A DNA stretch of 64,000 bases from an uncultured Phycisphaerales bacterium (GTDB lineage: Bacteria > Planctomycetota > Phycisphaerae > Sedimentisphaerales > Anaerobacaceae), in contig OY970359.1 of NCBI GenBank assembly GCA_963718665.1, forward strand, positions 1,504,001 through 1,568,000, read 5' to 3'. A program made the position numbers and the translations under genes. The notes below the pieces were generated by a model. It saw nothing but the letters and a program-made list of their open reading frames with translations, searched no databases and was not told where the DNA came from. This document shows positions 14,458-62,024 of this stretch, piece by piece. Every line of letters begins with the position of its first letter. Position 1 is the first letter of the stretch.

Positions 14458-14539
14458 TACGGCAAACATATTTTTGTCCGCTTCGACAAAGGCGGGTGCA
14501 ATCAGCGGCAAAAACCGGCGGCGATGGGGACATTTAAAA

Positions 14540-14920
14540 GCGTCATAACCGCATTATTATTAAGTAGTTATCAATAAATGTCCTTTATTTATTAAGCCCT
14601 TTTTTGTGCTTTTTTTGTGCCTTTTCGTGGCCTTTTTTGACGTGTTTTTTCAGTCACGATTTTTATCGTAACCCCTTCAAATACAACAACTTAAATTCTG
14701 GATACAAACAGTCCTATAAAACAACTGTATCAAACAGTTGTATGATACAACTGTTCACCATTTTCGCGCAGGTCGAAAACCCTTAGATGTGAAAATTCTA
14801 AAATTTTTTTACTCCTTGCCCTATAAGGACTTATCGTTTTTAGGCATATCAGGAAATTCCTCGTTTTCGTCAAAACCGCGCAGTTTGCGCCATAGGGTAG
14901 AGGCATCTTGTGATGCTTCT
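14540..14920 (+). repeat. Conserved non-coding leader of HNH-AP2 element, copy 1
   Basis: Homologous to the reverse complement of 59886-60180; 14758-14788 is identical to 60029-60059. Confidence 0.9.
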
Positions 14921-15002
14921 TGAGGCATGTTTAGCCCTCGGATTTATCCGGGGGTCATAAATAACAACGAACCATGAACATTGAACGAAGGAGGATGAGA
15001 AA

Positions 15003-15617
15003 ATGGCAACGATTAACGTAACGATACCGAATTGGCTTGACCGTCTTTGCGTTTGGCCCGTGATGCTTTACCGCAAATACAAGTTTGGCTATTCCTATCG
15101 CAGGATTTACCTAAGCGAGGGCCTTTGGACTATTCTCGACCAGCAGGATTACTACTGCTTTGGCAGATTCAAATGGGAAATCAATGGCAACGATAATAAA
15201 TTCTATGCCGTTCGCAACGTAATGGCCGATTCTTCTCGAACCACTACTGTCCGGTTGCACAGGTTAATTATGAATGCCCCTAAGGGCTTTGTGGTTGACC
15301 ATATAAACGGCGATTCACTCGATAATCGAAGGGCCAATCTCCGCCTCGCTACACAGGCCCAGAATTTATATAACAGGAAGAAGAAAAAAAATACCTCCTC
15401 ACAGTTTATCGGCGTCTCTTTTAATAAATCGCATCGATATTGGGGGGCACAAATCAAAGTTAACGGCAAAGCCATCTGGCTTGGACGCTTCGACTCCGAA
15501 ATCGACGCCGCCAGTGCTTACGATGTCGCCGCCATTAAATACCGTGGAGAATTCGCACGACTCAATTTCCCAGGGGAAAAGTACATTAACGAAACTTGTC
15601 CGGCGAATGCCAAATAA
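15003..15617 (+). CDS. HNH endonuclease with C-terminal AP2 DNA-binding domain
   Basis: LHRLIM...[18 protein letters not shown] (HNH_3); SSQFIGVS...W.AQI...[17 protein letters not shown]...GEFARLNF (AP2); RBS GGAGG. Confidence 0.93.
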
Positions 15618-15678
15618 TAATTAAATTTAGCCCCCCGCCTCGCGCGGTGGGGGTTTGTTATGTAATCTTCCTTATTCG

Positions 15679-15762
15679 CCTGCTCGCCTTGCCTGTCCCG
15701 AGCGTACCTGCGGTGAGTGCAGCCGAACCAGTCGAGGGGTAGCGTAATCGAAGAAACGAGCC
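15679..15762 (+). repeat. Triple-nested CCTG-led REP-like palindromes
   Basis: CCTG at 15679, 15692 and 15707, each unit interrupting the previous one. Confidence 0.65.
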
Positions 15763-15911
15763 GTTTATCGGCTTTATTAACGAGTATTTCATTTTAAAAT
15801 CATTTTTTTAAATATTGGCCGTCAACATTCGATGTTCGACAGACGCCTCATTTACGTCTTTGTGTGTATGGCGGACAGAGGGATTTGTTAAGCCATGGAG
15901 AGGAAAGCAAT

Positions 15912-16464
15912 TAAAAAAGCCGTTAAACCACGAAGGAAAAATAATAAAATAGTGTTTTTGTATTAACTTCGTGCCCCTTCGCGCTCTTCGTGGTGAAAAG
16001 GAATTTTATGGAATTTGACGAATTATCAGGCAAAGTCATCGGCTGCGCGATTGAGGTTCATAAGAACCTGGGGCCCGGCTTGCTGGAATCTGCCTATGAA
16101 CGCTGCCTGTCATACGAATTGACCGCCGCAGGCCTGAGACATGAAGCACAAAAGGAACTGCCCATAGATTACAAAGGCCTCAAGCTTGATACTGGATACC
16201 GGATTGACCTGATTATTGAAAACGGCGTTATCGTCGAACTGAAGAGCATTGAAAAGGTGCTGCCTATTCACGAGGCACAGATTCTTACGTATATGAAGCT
16301 GGCCGGATTAAGCGTTGGTTTACTTATCAATTTCAATGTTATAAAACTCAAAGACGGAATTAAAAGATTTGTTTTGTAAAAGCATTAAACCACGAAGGAC
16401 ACAGAGAACCACGAAGATAAATTTCAAAAAACTTCGTGCCCCTTCGCGCTCTTCGTGGTGAAAA
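15912..16464 (+). repeat. Hairpin-forming direct repeats flanking the GxxExxY gene
   Basis: 35-bp identity 15965-15999 = 16430-16464; TTAAACCACGAAGGA precedes both. Confidence 0.92.
16008..16379 (+). CDS. GxxExxY protein (PD-(D/E)xK nuclease-like)
   Basis: LGPGLLESAYE, YRIDLII...IVELKS, HEAQILTY, GLLINF. Confidence 0.95.
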   Translation: MEFDELSGKVIGCAIEVHKNLGPGLLESAYERCLSYELTAAGLRHEAQKELPIDYKGLKLDTGYRIDLIIENGVIVELKSIEKVLPIHEAQILTYMKLAGLSVGLLINFNVIKLKDGIKRFVL

Positions 16465-16534
16465 TGAATTATTAAGCTTTTTGTGCTTTTTTGTGGCAAT
16501 AAACTTTATACACTCTTATCTTAAGGAGACGAAA

Positions 16535-18097
16535 ATGTTCACCGCACCTAAACCCACGCCAGCGCTCTGTCTGCAACAAACCATTATTCTTTCCATATTT
16601 TTACTTGTGGCGAACTTCGCTTCCGCCTACTCCGGCGGCGACGGCTCACCAAATAACCCTTACCAAATCGCCGATGTTAACGACCTACTCTATCTCGGCT
16701 CTGATGAACCCAACTACGATAAATTCTTCATCCTCACAGCAGATATCAACCTCGCCCCAAACCTGCCCGGCAGGCAGATTTTCAACAACGCCGTCATCGC
16801 ACCCGGTGATTATCCTTCCGGTTTTACTGGTTCTTTCGATGGCGCTTGCCATAAAATCAGCAACCTGACTATAAATGCTGATCCAAATATATATGGTTGT
16901 TTGGGCCTGTTTGGTGTTGTTGGTGGTAAGATAAATAACCTTGGCTTAGAAGATGTCAACATCATAGGGGGGAATGATTTGGGTAATGTCGGCGGATTGG
17001 TTGGAGGTAATGATAATGGAACCATTAGCAATTGCTATTCAAAGGGCAATATCTACGTCGGGATTACTGCACACAATGTCGGTGGATTGGTGGGGTCGAA
17101 TGGAGGTGACATCAACAATTGCTATTCAAAAGGGATTATTGCTGTTGCCGGTACCGAAAGCTATATATACCCCGGTGCGAGCAATTTCGGCGGGCTTGTG
17201 GGGGAAAATGTGAGCGAATATTTCATCACCGGTGCTATCAGTAATTCTTATTCATCCTGCGACGTCATTTGCGGGAAGAACGTGGGGAATATAGGCGGGT
17301 TGGTGGGGCTTAACGGCACCACATTCCCATTTTGCCAAGTCACTAACTGTTATTCAGCAGGAACTGTAAGCGTTGAAAATGGTAGTTCTATTGGTGGCTT
17401 GGTGGGGAGTAACTGGGCGGGCATAAATAGTTGCTTCTCGACAAGTAGCGTTATTGTTTTGGGGAGTTCGAGTTCTATAGGCGGATTGGTGGGAGATAGT
17501 AGTTGGGGTGATATCAATAACTGCTATTCGACAGGTGATGTCAATGGCGGGGATTATTCGTCTAAAATTGGCGGACTGGTGGGACTGGTTGGGATTAATT
17601 ACGGTAGCGTTATCACCAACTGCTACTCTACTGGCAATGTCAGTGGTGGGATTAATGACATCGGCGGATTGATAGGGGCAATCTATTTAGGCACAGTAAC
17701 TGCTTCTTTCTGGGATGTGAATACCAGCGGGTTGACATTTAGCGCTGGCGGAACAGGCAAAACAACAGCGGAAATGAAAACAGAAAGCACGTTTACCAAT
17801 GCCAGCTGGGATTTTGTCAATGAAACGGTCAACGGGACGGACGATATCTGGTCGATTAAAGAGGATGTCAATTATCCTGTGCTTGTTTGGCCGCTGGTTA
17901 ATCTTGTTATACCTTCCCAGTTTGGCTGGTATAAGGTGAACTTCATAGATTTTGCGGCTATGGCCAACTGGTGGAAACATAGGGATTGTGCGGTTAACAA
18001 TGACTGCGGCGGTGCGGACTTTGATTTTTCTGGAACAATTGACATGGCGGATTTGGAAATATTCTGCCGATATTGGCTTGCCGGAACAACCGATTAA
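16535..18097 (+). CDS. Secreted GLUG-repeat protein with dockerin-like C-terminus
   Basis: Signal peptide, YSGGDGS..NPYQI, repeated GGLVG.N...I.NCYS.G, DFDFSGTIDMADL...YWL; RBS AAGGAG. Confidence 0.9.
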   Translation: MFTAPKPTPALCLQQTIILSIFLLVANFASAYSGGDGSPNNPYQIADVNDLLYLGSDEPNYDKFFILTADINLAPNLPGRQIFNNAVIAPGDYPSGFTGSFDGACHKISNLTINADPNIYGCLGLFGVVGGKINNLGLEDVNIIGGNDLGNVGGLVGGNDNGTISNCYSKGNIYVGITAHNVGGLVGSNGGDINNCYSKGIIAVAGTESYIYPGASNFGGLVGENVSEYFITGAISNSYSSCDVICGKNVGNIGGLVGLNGTTFPFCQVTNCYSAGTVSVENGSSIGGLVGSNWAGINSCFSTSSVIVLGSSSSIGGLVGDSSWGDINNCYSTGDVNGGDYSSKIGGLVGLVGINYGSVITNCYSTGNVSGGINDIGGLIGAIYLGTVTASFWDVNTSGLTFSAGGTGKTTAEMKTESTFTNASWDFVNETVNGTDDIWSIKEDVNYPVLVWPLVNLVIPSQFGWYKVNFIDFAAMANWWKHRDCAVNNDCGGADFDFSGTIDMADLEIFCRYWLAGTTD

Positions 18098-18129
18098 ATG
18101 CCTGAAAAGAAAAGGCTCCGCGAAACTTT

Positions 18130-18176
18130 GCGTTAACCCTGTTAGATGGTGGCTTCGCCTATCTCATGGGGTTAAT
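18130..18176. repeat. REP-like hairpin; second copy at 59016-59063
   Basis: ACCC(T/C)GTTAGATGGTGGCTTC(G/A)CCTATCTCA(T/C)GGGG in both places. Confidence 0.88.
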
Positions 18177-18355
18177 CTGCGTCTAAAAAAATGAATTCTC
18201 TGTACTCTCTGTGGCTAATAAAAAAGGCAGAAACCGCACATAATGACCAGAAAAGAGTTGCGGTCTTATGTCGGCTTTGAGACAATATCAACTGGCATCA
18301 TGTCTTTAATACAGGCGTTCGAAACTAATCCTCGTTTAGGTTAAGGAGTAGAACA

Positions 18356-27562: not shown

Positions 27563-30500
27563 ATGTCAACCACACGCCTAATTTGTTTAATCACTATTTT
27601 TGTATCCCTTCTGACAATAAGCAATTTCTCTTCTGTCTTTGCAGGTAACTGTGGCGATGGCGGTTTCGACTGGTGCGAAACAGTGGTATGGCACGACGGC
27701 GTTGACCAGAACTGGTGTGATACCGGCGGCTGGGTCCCTAATAACGGCGAACCTGGCGGAGCAATTCCGCCAGACGGCAACACACCCGTGGTTATCGAAC
27801 CGTACCCCGGCCCGATAATCAACATCGGCTGCGATGCCACCTGCTGTGCTTTGTGGGTATGCGATTGGTCATGGTCAGGCGCTCCGGACACAGCCGTTGA
27901 ACTTCGAGGGGGATCTTTGAATGCCGGAGAATATATCTGCCTCGCCAGTAACGGCACCGATTTCACATATGGTGACAGCAACTCAGTGGGCTCTGCCGGA
28001 CTGACAGTTCTTGGCGGCACGGTAACTACCCCGACTTCTGTCACGGGAAACGGTCTTTATATCGGCGGCGGCTCGACCACTTACCAACTTATGAACAAAG
28101 GTGTAGTGACGATGTATGGCGGACTCATTAGCGTCCCAAGGGTCGCTCTCTATCATGGCAATATTGCCCTGTATGGCGGAACTCTGCAGTGCATAGGAGA
28201 CAACAATTTCATTTTCTACCAGGACTATCCGGAAAATAAAATCGACATCAGCGGCGGCACACTGCAACTTCATGGCGACTATACGATTACCACTCCGAGT
28301 CTTGCCAATTTCATCGCGAACGGCTGGATTTACTCCTCACGCGGCACCATCGGAACGGCTGCATTTGACGGCACCTGGACAACATTAACAAGCAGCAACG
28401 TAAACATGCTAATTCCATGGGGACCTACGCCGGCTAACCACGCGACGAATGTTCATTACAGAGTAAACGATGTTAACGTCGGCATTACGCTCCATTGGCA
28501 CAGTGGCAGCGAACCCAACGTCATAAACCATGACGTGTATTTCGGGACATCCACCGCGGACGTCAATATCGCAACCCCAGCATCAGCGCAATTCGTGGGA
28601 GAAACAAATGAAGCCAATGCCGCTGATACGAATACAAATGGAGACTCGAACAACCTCACTGTAAGCAATTACAACTTCAAAATTGCTACCATCTACTATT
28701 GGCGAGTTGATGATAATGCAATCACATCAAACATATATGACGGAAGCGGCAATGTTATCGGTTATAACACCACGCTTACTAAAGGCCCGATCTGGCACTT
28801 CACGACTCATGACGGCAAGGCATATAATCCAAACCCGTATAACGGACGGGTTGGCTTAACCGAGCCGTTACAGTTAAGCTGGACGCCAGGCGACTTTGCA
28901 GCCAGCCACCTGGTATTTGTTGGCACGGACAGCGCGACGGTCTACAGTGCCAGTAGCACCACTGCTAAAGTTTACAGAAGCACACAGACCGGCACCTCAT
29001 ATTCACTTACGGGCTTAGCGACTAACTGGTACGGACCTTTAGTGCCGGGCACAACCTACTGGTGGAAGGTAACGGAAGTTAACGGCACAACGCAATGGGG
29101 TTCAACCGGCCTCAGCGGCGTCACTGCACCTGTACTTTGGACCTTTACACCTGCGGCGTATATCACCATCGATGACTTTGAAGATTACAACACCACGGCT
29201 GATGTAAACGCCAACTGGATGATGGGTTATGCCGCCACTTGCCCCGGTTCCCCCCTGATAACCCCGTCCGGGACTTTGACCTATGTGCTTGATGCCGCTG
29301 GCAAACACGGCAATTTCACCTATAGCGAAAATACAAGCACACAACAATTCTCAGAGGTAAAACGCTATTACGGCAGCAGCGGCACGGTATTCTCGGACAG
29401 CAGCATACTTTCTGAGCAGCCCACGGAATTAAGAGTAGATTATCTCGGAGCAGCGGCTAACGCGGCTGACCCGGTTTACGACGTGATGTATGTAGCTCTT
29501 GAAGATTCAGCGGGCAATATTGGTGTGTTCAATAATCCGGACACCAGTGCCTCACAGGTAACCTCCTGGACACAATGGTATATCCCTCTCAAAGACATCT
29601 ACTTGGCGAGTCAGCCAAACGCGGTGAACCTTGCAGCAGTTAGCGCTTTCTACCTCGGCTTTGGTCAGCGTTGCCTCCTGCCCGGCTCTCAGGACAGCGG
29701 CGGCGACGGCAACGTAATGTTTGACAATATACAACTACTTCGGGGATGCGATTGGCCTGGCGGCGCCTTGAGCGAGGACTTTGATGGTGATTGCTATGTT
29801 GACATCAATGATTTGAGCATCTTCGCGGAAAGTTGGTTACAGAAAGCAGAATTGCGCACCTTCACTACTATTCTGGCACCTTCGGCGCCGATACTCTGGT
29901 ACAAATTTAACGATTCCGGCGATACGACTGACGTTATTGATTACGGAACAGGCGATGCAAATAACTATGCGGGCACAGTCGCCAACTGGACTTCGCTCTG
30001 CTGGGACGCTACTGACGGCCGGGCTGGTCATCCCGGATGCTTGTACATTCCTCCAATCCCAACCACGGGTGGTGGACCTGCAAACTCTCAGAGTTACGTT
30101 AATGCACCTCCGTCGGCAATGGGCTTCCTCGGCGATGGTAACCATAGAACTAACGGTGGCGGCGTAACCGTCTCATTGTGGGAAAACGCAAGCTTGGTCG
30201 GTGACTTCCTTGTTCAATACCCTGGTATCTGGGGTGTCTGGAACACAGCCAATACCACTGAAACCGTAGAATGTCCGTGTCCGTCACAAATCACTCGGAC
30301 TTCTGCCACAGGGCAAGCCGGTTTCTATTTGCGTACTTGTTCCATAAGAAACGCATTCGTGGCCGCGAGCGTATACGAGCCAATACTTAACTTTGGCGGC
30401 CGCTGGAACAACTGGATATATGTTAAGACACCGAGCAGCATGAAGCTTTACCTCAACGGTGAAAAAGTTGCGGAAACAGACGCAAACGGGCAACCTGGTG

Positions 30501-59058: not shown

Positions 59059-59650
59059 CTAATTTGGAAAGTTCAGCGTCGCGAATTCTCCGTGGTATTT
59101 TCTCGCCGCCGCGTCGTAAACTCTCGCCGCCTCGACCTCCGTCGCAAAGCACCCTAAGCTTATTCGTCGCCCTTCGGCGTTGATATAGCTGTCCCACGGC
59201 TTATATCTGCGCGAATTTTTATGAAAGCACACCCCTTTGAATCTCGACGAGCATCCTTTGCGTTTCCTGCAATTGACCGTATTTTGCCCTCTCGTCGCCG
59301 CCCTGAGATTTGTCCTTCTGTTGTCTAATCCGTTATGATTGAAATGGTCAATCAGCTTTCCCTTCGGATTTCCCATTATCGCGTTATGCATCCATACCAA
59401 TCTTTTCTTTGTCTTATCGCTCACCCGCGCATCGCACCGCGTACCACGTTCTTGAGCTGTATCTGGTGCTCCAGTGATAATTTTTCAGCCGCTCGTAATC
59501 ATCCGCGTCAACAATCGCGAACTTGTATCTCGTTAGCGGTATCAGCCGAATCTCGTGCCCGAATCGGCTGCGATAATAGACCAGATATACCGCGTGTAAT
59601 ATCCGTCCCAGCCAGTTTAATTCCTTTGCCTTGCTAATCTTTATACTCAA
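59059..59650 (-). pseudogene. HNH-AP2 endonuclease copy 2, frameshifted near 59425 (may be a sequencing error)
   Basis: 59414..59650 matches the N-terminus of copy 1; 59059..59424 carries IDHFNHNGLDNRRTNLR and the AP2 domain. Confidence 0.88.
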
Positions 59651-59885: not shown

Positions 59886-60180
59886 TATAGAGGAAGTCGA
59901 ACAATCGACGTCCTCTATAATATGGCGCAATCTTGCGCACTTTTGACGAAAACTAAGGGATTTCCTGATGGGGTCAAAATCGCTAACCCCTTATGCGGCA
60001 AGGAGTAAAAATTTTTTAAGATTTTTGAATCTAAGGGTTTTCGACCTGCGCGAAAATGGATAACAACTGTTTTTATCCAGAATTTAAAACCTTGGTGTAA
60101 AAAGAGTTATGGCAAAAAATAAGCGAAGTAATGTCCCCGCCATTTTTTGTAAGTGCTGACAGATAAAGATTTTAACGCTG
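59886..60180 (-). repeat. Conserved non-coding leader of HNH-AP2 element, copy 2
   Basis: Reverse complement aligns with 14540-14920. Confidence 0.9.
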
Positions 60181-60341
60181 CCTTTTCCTCATCCGTATTT
60201 AGCCCCGTCAGCATCGCCGGAGGCGTGTGACGGGGTTCCCCTCGCGAGGTTCGCTTAAAATGTTTATCCCGCCAAATCACTTGACCAAACCCGTTTTTAC
60301 CGTATTATCTATCTCGTTCTAAACATGGAGAGCTATTGACT

Positions 60342-62024
60342 ATGCCGAATGGTTACTCAGAACTGTCAAAAAATGACCTTCTGAAGGTTATACAAAAACT
60401 TGAATCCCGCAAGAAATACGGTCTTGTCTGGGATGAGGATCGAACGAAGGAGCAGTTCGAAAAAGAATCCGAAAATGCTTTGCCCGTACTGAAGGAAGTC
60501 AAAGGCAAAGAAATCATCACTGAACCGGATAAACCAATCAATATTCTTATCGAAGGTGATAACTACCATGCCCTTTCAGTGCTGAATTATACTCACCAAG
60601 GCAAGATAGATGTTATCTACATTGACCCGCCGTACAACACAGGGGCGAAGGACTGGAAATACAGTAATGATTATGTGGATATAAATGACACCTATAGACA
60701 TAGCAAATGGCTTTCTATGATGTCAAAAAGATTAAGGTTGGCAAAGAATTTGTTAAAAGATGACGGGGTATTGATTTGTGCGATAGACGAAAACGAACTC
60801 AACCGTATAGGTTTATTACTTGAGGATCTTTTCGGAAACTGTGAAATTCATTGTATTACGATAGTTCACAATCCAAGGGGTGTGCAGGGAAACAATTTTT
60901 CATACACACACGAATACGCATACTTTGTATTTCAAAAAGGATTGAAAATAGTTGGTCCAAGAAAAATCAAAGAGGACGACATCTATTGGAGTAATTTAAG
61001 AAACTGGGGTGGCGAATCTTTAAGAACCGATGCGAAAAATTGCTTTTATCCAATTATAGTTGAAAAGGACAACATTGTTGGCTTTGGTGATGTGCCCGAA
61101 GATGACTTTCATCCGGAAAAACAAACCATCGTAAAAGGAAGTAAACATTATGTTTACCCCATCGATGTAAAAGGAACTGAGCGAAAATGGAGATACGCAA
61201 GACAAAGCGTTGAAGAGGTTAAAGAGTATCTGAGGACGCAAAAAAGGAATGGTGGGTACGAAATTGAGATAGGTAAGGATTTCGGCACAGTTAAAACTGT
61301 TTGGCAAGATAGAAGGTATGATGCAAACGAGTACGGAACCAAAATCGTCCGTGCGCTTGTTCCGGAAACCGATTTCGACTTTCCTAAATCCATTTGGAAT
61401 ACGTATGATTGTATAGCTCCTATTTTATATCAAAAAAAGAATGCGACAATTCTAGATTTTTTTGCAGGTTCCGGTACGACCGCTCATGCTGTAATGATTC
61501 TTAACAAGGAAGACGGACAAGAAGGACACCGAAAATTTATCCTTTGTACGAACAACGAAAACGAGATTGCGCAAAAAGTTTGTCATCCCAGAATTAAAAA
61601 GGTTATTCAAGGGCATAAGGATTACCCTGACATTACAGGAATTAAATCTAATCTGAAATACTACAAGACTTCTTTCGTAAAGCGAACTATCAGCAAAGAT
61701 ACTTTGAAGATTCGCATTACCCATGAATGTACCGAAATGCTTTGTCTTCGCGAGGGCATCTTTGACGAAAAGAAGAAGACGGCTGACTATCGCATATTTG
61801 ACCAAAATAGCCGAATCATGGCCGTTTATTATTCGCTTCAACGCGCACAACTTAAGGTTCTCAAGAAGGACCTCGACAAAATGAAGGGTGATAAAATCCT
61901 CTACTGTTTCACCCTTGATCCGCTGGGTCTGGATAAAACCGACTTTCAGGACTGGCAGGGTGTATCTTTAGAACCCATCCCACAGAAAATACTCGATGTG
62001 TACGAGAGCATCTATGAATATTAA
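60342..62024 (+). CDS. mod: Type III restriction-modification methyltransferase
   Basis: KYGLVW, LIEGDN, IYIDPPYNTG, FPK, LDFFAGSGTT (beta-class N6/N4 MTase); visibly AT-rich. Confidence 0.92.
   Translation: MPNGYSELSKNDLLKVIQKLESRKKYGLVWDEDRTKEQFEKESENALPVLKEVKGKEIITEPDKPINILIEGDNYHALSVLNYTHQGKIDVIYIDPPYNTGAKDWKYSNDYVDINDTYRHSKWLSMMSKRLRLAKNLLKDDGVLICAIDENELNRIGLLLEDLFGNCEIHCITIVHNPRGVQGNNFSYTHEYAYFVFQKGLKIVGPRKIKEDDIYWSNLRNWGGESLRTDAKNCFYPIIVEKDNIVGFGDVPEDDFHPEKQTIVKGSKHYVYPIDVKGTERKWRYARQSVEEVKEYLRTQKRNGGYEIEIGKDFGTVKTVWQDRRYDANEYGTKIVRALVPETDFDFPKSIWNTYDCIAPILYQKKNATILDFFAGSGTTAHAVMILNKEDGQEGHRKFILCTNNENEIAQKVCHPRIKKVIQGHKDYPDITGIKSNLKYYKTSFVKRTISKDTLKIRITHECTEMLCLREGIFDEKKKTADYRIFDQNSRIMAVYYSLQRAQLKVLKKDLDKMKGDKILYCFTLDPLGLDKTDFQDWQGVSLEPIPQKILDVYESIYEY

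Follow-up and report, generated by a model that had tools for sequence, protein, structure and literature searches.

A candidate late promoter shared by a phage-type capsid operon and dispersed HNH-AP2 nuclease genes in Sedimentisphaerales

Several described gene transfer agents (GTAs), phages and phage satellites can be compared with the system considered here. In the accessible sections of its description, the promoter of the Caulobacter crescentus GTA has a GafY element (-123 to -113), an IHF site and, between -35 and -10, a GC-rich palindrome; about 18 accessory promoters are likewise placed under GafY and IHF (PMC11150451). In the Bartonella GTA (BaGTA), as far as the available text of the preprint goes, the regulator lies at one phage-derived locus and governs a capsid operon elsewhere, and packaging is biased to chosen regions (bioRxiv 10.1101/2024.11.20.624540). 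The available parts of two further accounts describe the Ltr/RinA/ArpU proteins as small Gram-positive phage proteins which, bound to direct repeats upstream of terS, turn on morphogenesis, with LtrA partly resembling sigma-70 region 4 (PMC3753634), and RinA as a late activator of Gram-positive phages (PMC3152322). Phage satellites of the SaPI/PICI type, according to the accessible portion of PMC8987985, are small elements that exploit the particle of another element; the same source summarises the genomic profile of a GTA.

The locus compared here with these systems lies in G000, a Sedimentisphaerales genome on a single 2.61-Mb contig, and was found in the window, the whole 64-kb stretch of DNA that was analysed. 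A conserved non-coding leader precedes an HNH-AP2 nuclease gene twice in this window and recurs in the same genome before a phage-type capsid operon. Judged against the available text of PMC11150451, its layout resembles that of the Caulobacter GafY/IHF/GafZ promoter, with a putative activator element upstream, a candidate IHF site between it and the core promoter, a GC palindrome next to the -10-like element and many dispersed copies. Unlike the Caulobacter GTA as described there, it occurs in a different phylum, the dispersed promoters would drive a nuclease family and orphan terS-like genes, and the leader heads the portal gene rather than the terminase. A regulator locus apart from the capsid operon is also a feature of BaGTA; however, the bias of BaGTA is ascribed to run-off replication, nothing of that kind was found here, and a nuclease family does not figure in the available part of its description. 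Compared with Ltr/RinA/ArpU, which in the sections available serve one promoter of an intact prophage, the modules here are split by 680 kb and the repeats lie more than 110 bp apart. The parts are of known kinds, but no description was found of their combination, in which a large family of nucleases, present in three planctomycete families, bears the promoter of a domesticated capsid operon. A search of the open literature, with subscription journals mostly outside its coverage, returned no published account of a Sedimentisphaerales GTA-like system or of its nuclease cassettes.

The leader and the genes behind it

The two leaders of the window (Table 1) match each other far above chance (blastn E 1e-32). 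As a sequence-only reading of the window had reported, the 31-mer at 14758-14788 is identical to the reverse complement of 60029-60059, the conserved blocks that it listed align in the order given, and both terminal hairpins lie where it placed them. Its claim of three 25-bp dyads at matching positions holds for two of them (14669/60109 and 14809/60008), whereas the distance from the third to its downstream neighbour is 123 bp in copy 1 and 65 bp in copy 2. Nor do all dyads have the form TAA-N19-TTA, the best-conserved one beginning with TTA. The TTGT loop proposed as a shared feature of the hairpins is common but not general across leaders. The module is dispersed, with its non-coding part better conserved than its gene, as that reading had maintained; it is not limited to two copies, the genome having 11 leaders of this class and 27 nuclease genes. 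Metagenome contigs cover most of the copy-1 locus, several pieces with zero mismatches; none spans the whole locus, and the run is possibly the window's own source.

Table 1. Positions of the features of the two leader copies and their genes in the 64-kb window.
Feature	Position	Strand	Evidence or remark
3.7-kb block: leader, nuclease copy 1, GxxExxY gene, GLUG-repeat gene	14490..18200		absent at same site in G006, G007, G020
Class-A leader copy 1, candidate activator/IHF-dependent late promoter	14507..14907	+	HMM match 387 bits
Distal 25-bp TAA-N19-TTA dyad, leader copy 1	14546..14570	+	
Phased T-tracts, leader copy 1	14600..14665	+	sequence
Middle 25-bp TAA-N19-TTA dyad, leader copy 1	14669..14693	+	
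13-bp x3 repeat array, leader copy 1	14706..14755	+	
Upstream GCGCA(A/G)G box, candidate activator site, copy 1	14766..14772	+	
Core dyad CCTT-N7-AAG-N3-TTA behind A/T tract, IHF-like site, copy 1	14809..14833	+	
Proximal box inside GC-rich palindrome, copy 1	14878..14890	+	112 bp after upstream box
TAGGGT, putative -10-like hexamer, copy 1	14893..14898	+	sequence
Short sequence-variable hairpin at 3' end of leader copy 1, candidate 5' stem-loop of transcript	14899..14920	+	
Variable spacer: REP-like hairpin, heptamer repeats, RBS	14921..15002	+	
HNH_3-AP2 nuclease gene copy 1, 204 aa	15003..15617	+	
Terminator-like/REP-like hairpin 3' of nuclease gene copy 1	15632..15653	+	
HNH-AP2 gene copy 2, frameshifted	59059..59650	-	
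Hairpin ending leader copy 2	59886..59919	-	
Class-A leader copy 2	59910..60273	-	boxes 60051 and 59938; core dyad 60008-59984

The 11th leader of this class (G000 1,659,623-1,660,026), first shown by blastn, is the sole other full profile match in the genome. It precedes the portal, scaffold and SU10 major capsid genes, followed by nine more co-oriented genes (head operon, G000 1,660,149-1,669,816; L001:10150-19816). Over the core, the portal leader is identical to copy 1 at 132/152 positions and to copy 2 at 133/154, the two nuclease leaders sharing 124/152 with each other. The leader was detected in front of each of the genus's 13 portal genes, once only as its 3' part owing to an insertion. 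Outside the genus, leader HMMs matched before 4 of 15 portal genes, where loci without an HMM match were judged by eye and two (L062 and L065) were not assessed. Own-genome portal leaders were the best portal match for 6/6 nuclease leaders in G040, 7/8 in G026 and 8/9 in G000, so that the likeness to the lineage's own portal leader holds in three families. A leader tree, built without copy 1 because its second box is degenerate (copy 1 was compared pairwise instead), grouped the leaders by host lineage and, within the genus, by sub-clade, not strictly by species.

An exact scan for the 31-nt sequence over 185,579 GTDB species genomes returned 36 matches, all in planctomycete metagenome-assembled genomes (MAGs): 29 before HNH-AP2 genes, in keeping with the expectation that the leader almost always precedes such a gene, four before portal genes, two at contig ends and one elsewhere. 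A second type of cassette consists of class-A leaders followed by orphan small-terminase-like genes, six of which were found in five genomes (G013, G021, G008, G014 and G017; loci L032, L034, L146, L182, L183 and L184) with about 45% identity to the operon TerS. Some phage satellites carry their own TerS. The leader and orphan terS-like cassettes might resemble SaPI/PICI in this respect, but no integrase or replicon was seen in the cassettes inspected, and the helper would be a domesticated host system. At L033 (G011), a class-A leader without a downstream gene of its own faces phage-like genes on the opposite strand. Insertions of 0.5-2.7 kb, at least one of them transposase-like, split leaders or part them from their gene at G000 500,903-502,314 (L233), in G006 (L048 and L110) and in G007 (L019).

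The layout of the leader was compared over 54 sequences. The upstream GCGCA.G box is invariant in all 54, and in the two-box leaders the boxes are 110-115 bp apart in 43/52 and 126 bp apart in 9/52, the two spacing classes differing by about one helical turn. Between the boxes, the A/T tract and dyad fit the IHF consensus at 5-7 of 9 positions in 53/54 leaders; the only DNABII protein of the genome (G000 1,298,902) gets its best score as IHF-beta. The second box sits in a GC palindrome directly 5' of a TAGGGT/TAGGAT/TATAT element, and 52/54 leaders end in a hairpin with dG <= -5 (mean -11.2 vs -5.9 when shuffled). Phased T-tracts, kept in 9/11 class-A leaders when judged by eye, likely represent bent DNA. 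Between leader and gene, the spacer varies from 97 to 413 nt among class A and B copies. At the leader end, a sigma-70 scan was negative (3 sites found vs 2.8 expected). A sigma-54 promoter was rejected by eye against the consensus, there being no GG at -24 and no -12 GC in the G040 leaders. The 25-bp IHF-like dyad also recurs across G000 (44 strand matches vs 0-3 in shuffles), at 1,950,707 and about 20 other places; one copy adjoins a duplicated tmRNA 3' end, some 19.5 kb away from the tmRNA itself, in an att-like arrangement that is a probable island boundary.

The proposal of a structured RNA in a HEARO/IscB-like partnership with the nuclease was not borne out. RNAalifold on the 54 leaders gave a consensus fold of only four invariant pairs with a covariation term of 0, the TTTTCG/CGAAAA hairpin pairs in 65% of cells, and two-sided changes in the named hairpins were no higher than in slid controls (34 vs 20-43). 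Neither the dyad nor the GC palindrome, both conserved, shows any two-sided change, and a tRNA was the sole Rfam match in the window. Named pairs were slightly above column shuffles on two whole-structure measures (3/500 and 6/500), and the mean folding z was -1.27 over 40 of the 54 leader cores. An HNH nuclease beside conserved non-coding DNA is also what HEARO and IscB-omegaRNA present, but here there is no covarying RNA and no RuvC or IS200/605 feature, and the leader is shared with structural genes.

A split phage-derived head and terminase system

The terminase operon (G000 975,253-984,635; L075 and L232) lies 680 kb from the head operon. It encodes a regulator, an ABC ATPase, GNAT-like and ParB-like proteins, TerS and TerL behind a sigma-70-like promoter, and its gene order is kept across the families sampled. 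TerL was missed by Pfam Terminase_6N and found by PHROG 2. Both operons, at 1.66 Mb (head) and 0.98 Mb (terminase), sit among housekeeping genes, and no integrase or replication genes of their own were seen beside them when the open reading frames were read by eye. Within the head operon, seven genes, several of them conserved, have no PHROG name; as to tail and lysis functions, only weak matches to neck (5e-5) and spanin (3e-3) proteins were recognised. Among 41 genomes, portal was found in 28, capsid in 27, TerL in 40, TerS in 36 and the regulator in 34, essentially as single copies; the single-copy portal gene occurs in 15/16 genera. The dN/dS values of portal and TerL are 0.07-0.16. These split operons, known here from their genes, appear to fit the genomic profile of a GTA as summarised in the accessible portion of PMC8987985.

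The regulator (G000 984,635-984,189) has 148 aa, is all-helical with two HTH-like halves, and gave weak Sigma70_r4 and Q-antiterminator matches; a fold search yielded no match at E<=0.001. In G000, and at 8/8 distant operon loci where the ABC gene was found, the first gene of the terminase operon is a tandem-HTH gene. Some details of the operon vary. In G000, methyltransferase-like and radical-SAM/photolyase-like genes lie between GNAT and ParB (L075:15072-18672). Between ParB and TerS, G026 has a primosomal-like gene (PHROG 3992) along with an HNH-AP2 gene bearing an extra C-terminal domain (L192:5897-7476), and its congener G033 has neither at that place. The gap between TerS and TerL also differs among genomes.

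Four genomes (G002, G007, G019 and G020) have no head operon at the locus, which is bridged by a contig, and no portal or capsid match elsewhere. Three of the four keep small relics of its leader or last gene, TerL is still under purifying selection in genomes without the head operon, and nuclease matches number 28 in G002, 6 in G007, 22 in G019 and 18 in G020.

Nuclease genes and the turnover of their cassettes

The frame behind leader copy 1 encodes an HNH_3 + AP2 protein, as first read, with an intact active-site motif. Its structure model (pLDDT 90.8) matches I-HmuI in the HNH part and AP2 folds, and D99, H100, N112 and N121 are invariant in 110 nuclease sequences. The protein has an N-terminal helix at residues 10-28. 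The best 15 phage records are at most 42% identical to it, and 11 of these 15 start at residue 31-35, so that they miss this helix; relatives on viral contigs are only 28-41% identical. Domain order, active-site motif and presence or absence at intergenic sites are as in free-standing phage HNH-AP2 homing endonucleases and I-HmuI (PHROG 99; PDB 1U3E). The genes described here differ from those of phages in being chromosomal, with up to about 30 diverged copies per genome.

G000 carries 27 HNH-AP2 loci with 39-62% identity to copy 1, and the frame is intact in 25 of them. By their upstream DNA they form three classes. Class A (10 copies) has the long leader of the window copies, so the full two-box leader occurs in only 10 of 27 nuclease copies. 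Class B (10 copies) is shorter, keeping the core dyad and the TAGAGG end with at most a degenerate box, and class C (seven copies) has a similar dyad followed by a sigma-70-like TTGA-N17-TATAAT promoter. Of the genus's 24 genomes, 22 contain the family, with 2-32 matches each, and expansions also occur in G026, G033 and G040, which belong to two other families. No strand bias relative to replication was found among the G000 copies (14 vs 13). Nuclease copy number did not differ between genomes with and without a portal gene (18.8 vs 14.7, p 0.49) or with regulator presence (p 0.13), related genomes being counted as independent in both comparisons.

No two G000 paralogues are more than 68% identical and their synonymous sites are saturated, which indicates that there was no recent burst of copies; the paralogues being old, no spread to new sites was seen. 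A protein tree of the nucleases was made in a quick version. Among 36 loci fetched from G017 (16/16) and G006 (20/21), 33 on inspection share a flank with a G000 copy, one does so weakly, and two sites are empty in G000. Twelve close orthologue pairs have dN/dS of 0.05-0.31. At 17 of 29 syntenic pairs the alleles are below 80% nucleotide identity, with flanks mostly at 85-95%. Some cassettes are inverted, and the leader class may differ between genomes at one locus; certain loci combine the flank upstream of one G000 copy with the flank downstream of a different copy. The nuclease loci are old, mostly syntenic and under purifying selection, yet they are gained, lost and allele-swapped.

Empty sites in relatives, which the sequence-only reading had asked for, exist. 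The GxxExxY gene (15990-16379) and the GLUG-repeat gene (16436-18097) of the window share one presence/absence block with copy 1, and at the copy-2 site the cassette is present in G006 and G017 while the site is empty in G007. Cassette junctions fall in short genomic repeats. That reading's alternative of an att- or ori-like mobile end was not supported: no target duplication was seen at the junctions inspected, no paralogue pair exceeds the identity given above, and positions are mostly syntenic. Neither terminal repeats nor near-identical recent copies, the marks of an insertion sequence or MITE, were found, and the cassettes inspected showed no integrase, replicon or att site. Heptamer and REP-like repeats mark many such variable junctions. 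A DNA methyltransferase gene (N6/N4; window 60336-62024) lies directly upstream of leader copy 2, inside a 6-kb block absent from G007. Breakpoints of rearrangement between G000 and G017 or G006 fall at nuclease cassettes (L076, L082, L084 and L100).

What the leader and its nucleases may be

A shared GTA-type late promoter appears to account for the leader better than an RNA or a mobile end does. Of the proposals of the sequence-only reading, its conservative one, a promoter with a 5' hairpin, comes closest; the same leader also heads the domesticated capsid operon, which lies outside the window. With about even confidence, we take the leader to be a copy of the late promoter of a domesticated GTA-like head operon, and the HNH-AP2 genes to be old, locus-specific, homing-type nucleases that carry this promoter. 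Late-promoter control is typical of phage homing nucleases. Some twenty scattered nuclease genes would then probably be switched on together with the GTA-like particle, and they may use that particle to spread.

Starting from the observed sharing of the leader and the observed evolution of the cassettes, we infer from sequence how binding, transcription, cleavage and transfer would proceed. The tandem-HTH protein of the terminase operon would bind both GCGCA(A/G)G boxes, an IHF-like protein would bend the DNA between them, and transcription would start near TAGAGG. Under a late promoter the nucleases would be made only in particle-building cells, remaining silent until a cell commits to particle production; such cells would be doomed anyway. 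Each nuclease would nick or cut near its own locus and so favour the packaging and recombination of that locus, and each cassette would spread, or replace its allele, via particle-mediated transfer. Self-favouring nicking of this kind would account for selection on the active site as well as for the turnover of alleles. Several observations stand against this reading. The genomes without a head operon keep their nucleases, nuclease copy number did not differ with the portal gene, and 17/27 G000 copies have no full two-box leader. Furthermore, the regulator has weak family matches only, tail and lysis genes are represented by no more than the weak neck and spanin matches, the old paralogues show no spread to new sites, and the core terminase operon is without the leader.

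A wider form of this proposal, which we put forward tentatively and hold at less than even confidence, is that Sedimentisphaerales carry a GTA with genomic parasites of its own. Dozens of HNH-AP2 and orphan terS cassettes would copy the lineage's current capsid-operon promoter or packaging signal, fire only in particle producers, and drive their own locus into particles and recipients.

Under the same late promoter, the nucleases could instead be host-domesticated GTA accessory genes, whose many specificities fragment the producer's chromosome for packaging or help to kill the producer. The intact frames of 25/27 copies, purifying selection, long-kept synteny and the lack of near-identical paralogues agree with this, as do the accessory promoters of Caulobacter in the sections available of PMC11150451. 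However, we consider it unlikely given that no HNH-AP2 match was found in G013 or G021 and only 0-2 full or partial matches in most other families keeping portal and TerL, that allele replacement, inversion and loss are frequent, and that the G000 copies are not more evenly spaced round the chromosome than random (P 0.22).

Alternatively or in addition, the leader could be a pac- or cos-like site of packaging initiation, with TerS on the boxes around an IHF bend and TerL cutting near the terminal hairpin; cassettes of leader plus nuclease or terS gene would then be minimal particle satellites. Phased T-tracts and an IHF-like site, both present here, also occur at SPP1 pac and lambda cosB. The leader stands directly before orphan terS-like genes, the terminal hairpin takes in -10-like bases in some copies, and chromosome rearrangements break at cassettes. 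This role is rather improbable in our view, as what lies downstream of the leader is nearly always a gene with an RBS, class-C copies have a sigma-70 promoter at the same place, core terS has no leader in the operon loci examined (present at 1/30 loci, an orphan), and the 22-nt leader pattern has no exact match in viral contigs. Much of the evidence behind the late-promoter reading would also fit host-domesticated nucleases and a pac-like leader.

Host control is conceivable since the 13-bp x3 array of copy 1 also lies upstream of a TetR-family gene (G000 1,120,985-1,121,031; L234). The leader would in that case be a host-regulated promoter, for example under the TetR protein sharing its repeat array, captured by capsid genes and nucleases that persist without particles. 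The persistence of nucleases and TerL under selection in genomes without the head operon would suit such an origin, to which we give little credence: the profile search placed the full leader before no ordinary G000 host gene, at most 1/36 of the GTDB matches could be of that kind, and the array is cleanly absent (39 bp) from leader copy 2 and the copy at 29,321 as well as from the leaders of distant families. A structured non-coding RNA working with the nuclease in the manner of HEARO/OMEGA, or the end of an active transposable element, is very improbable, for the negative folding z, the slight excess of named pairs over column shuffles and the variable terminal hairpin are outweighed by the consensus fold of just four invariant, non-covarying pairs, two-sided changes within the range of slid controls, the absence of an Rfam match to the leader, its presence before portal and terS-like genes, and the lack of target duplications and recent copies.

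The late-promoter reading describes a candidate GTA in a planctomycete order together with a candidate promoter and a candidate activator. It makes testable whether selfish genes exploit a system that packages host DNA to bias their own transfer, and the system brings its own controls: each genome has about 20 natural copies of the promoter, and there are empty sites as well as lineages without the head operon. If true, it would explain why one small bacterial chromosome holds 27 phage-type nuclease genes. The wider form of the proposal, if true, would constitute homing and packaging drive in a haploid chromosome via a GTA, as well as a source of rearrangement hotspots.
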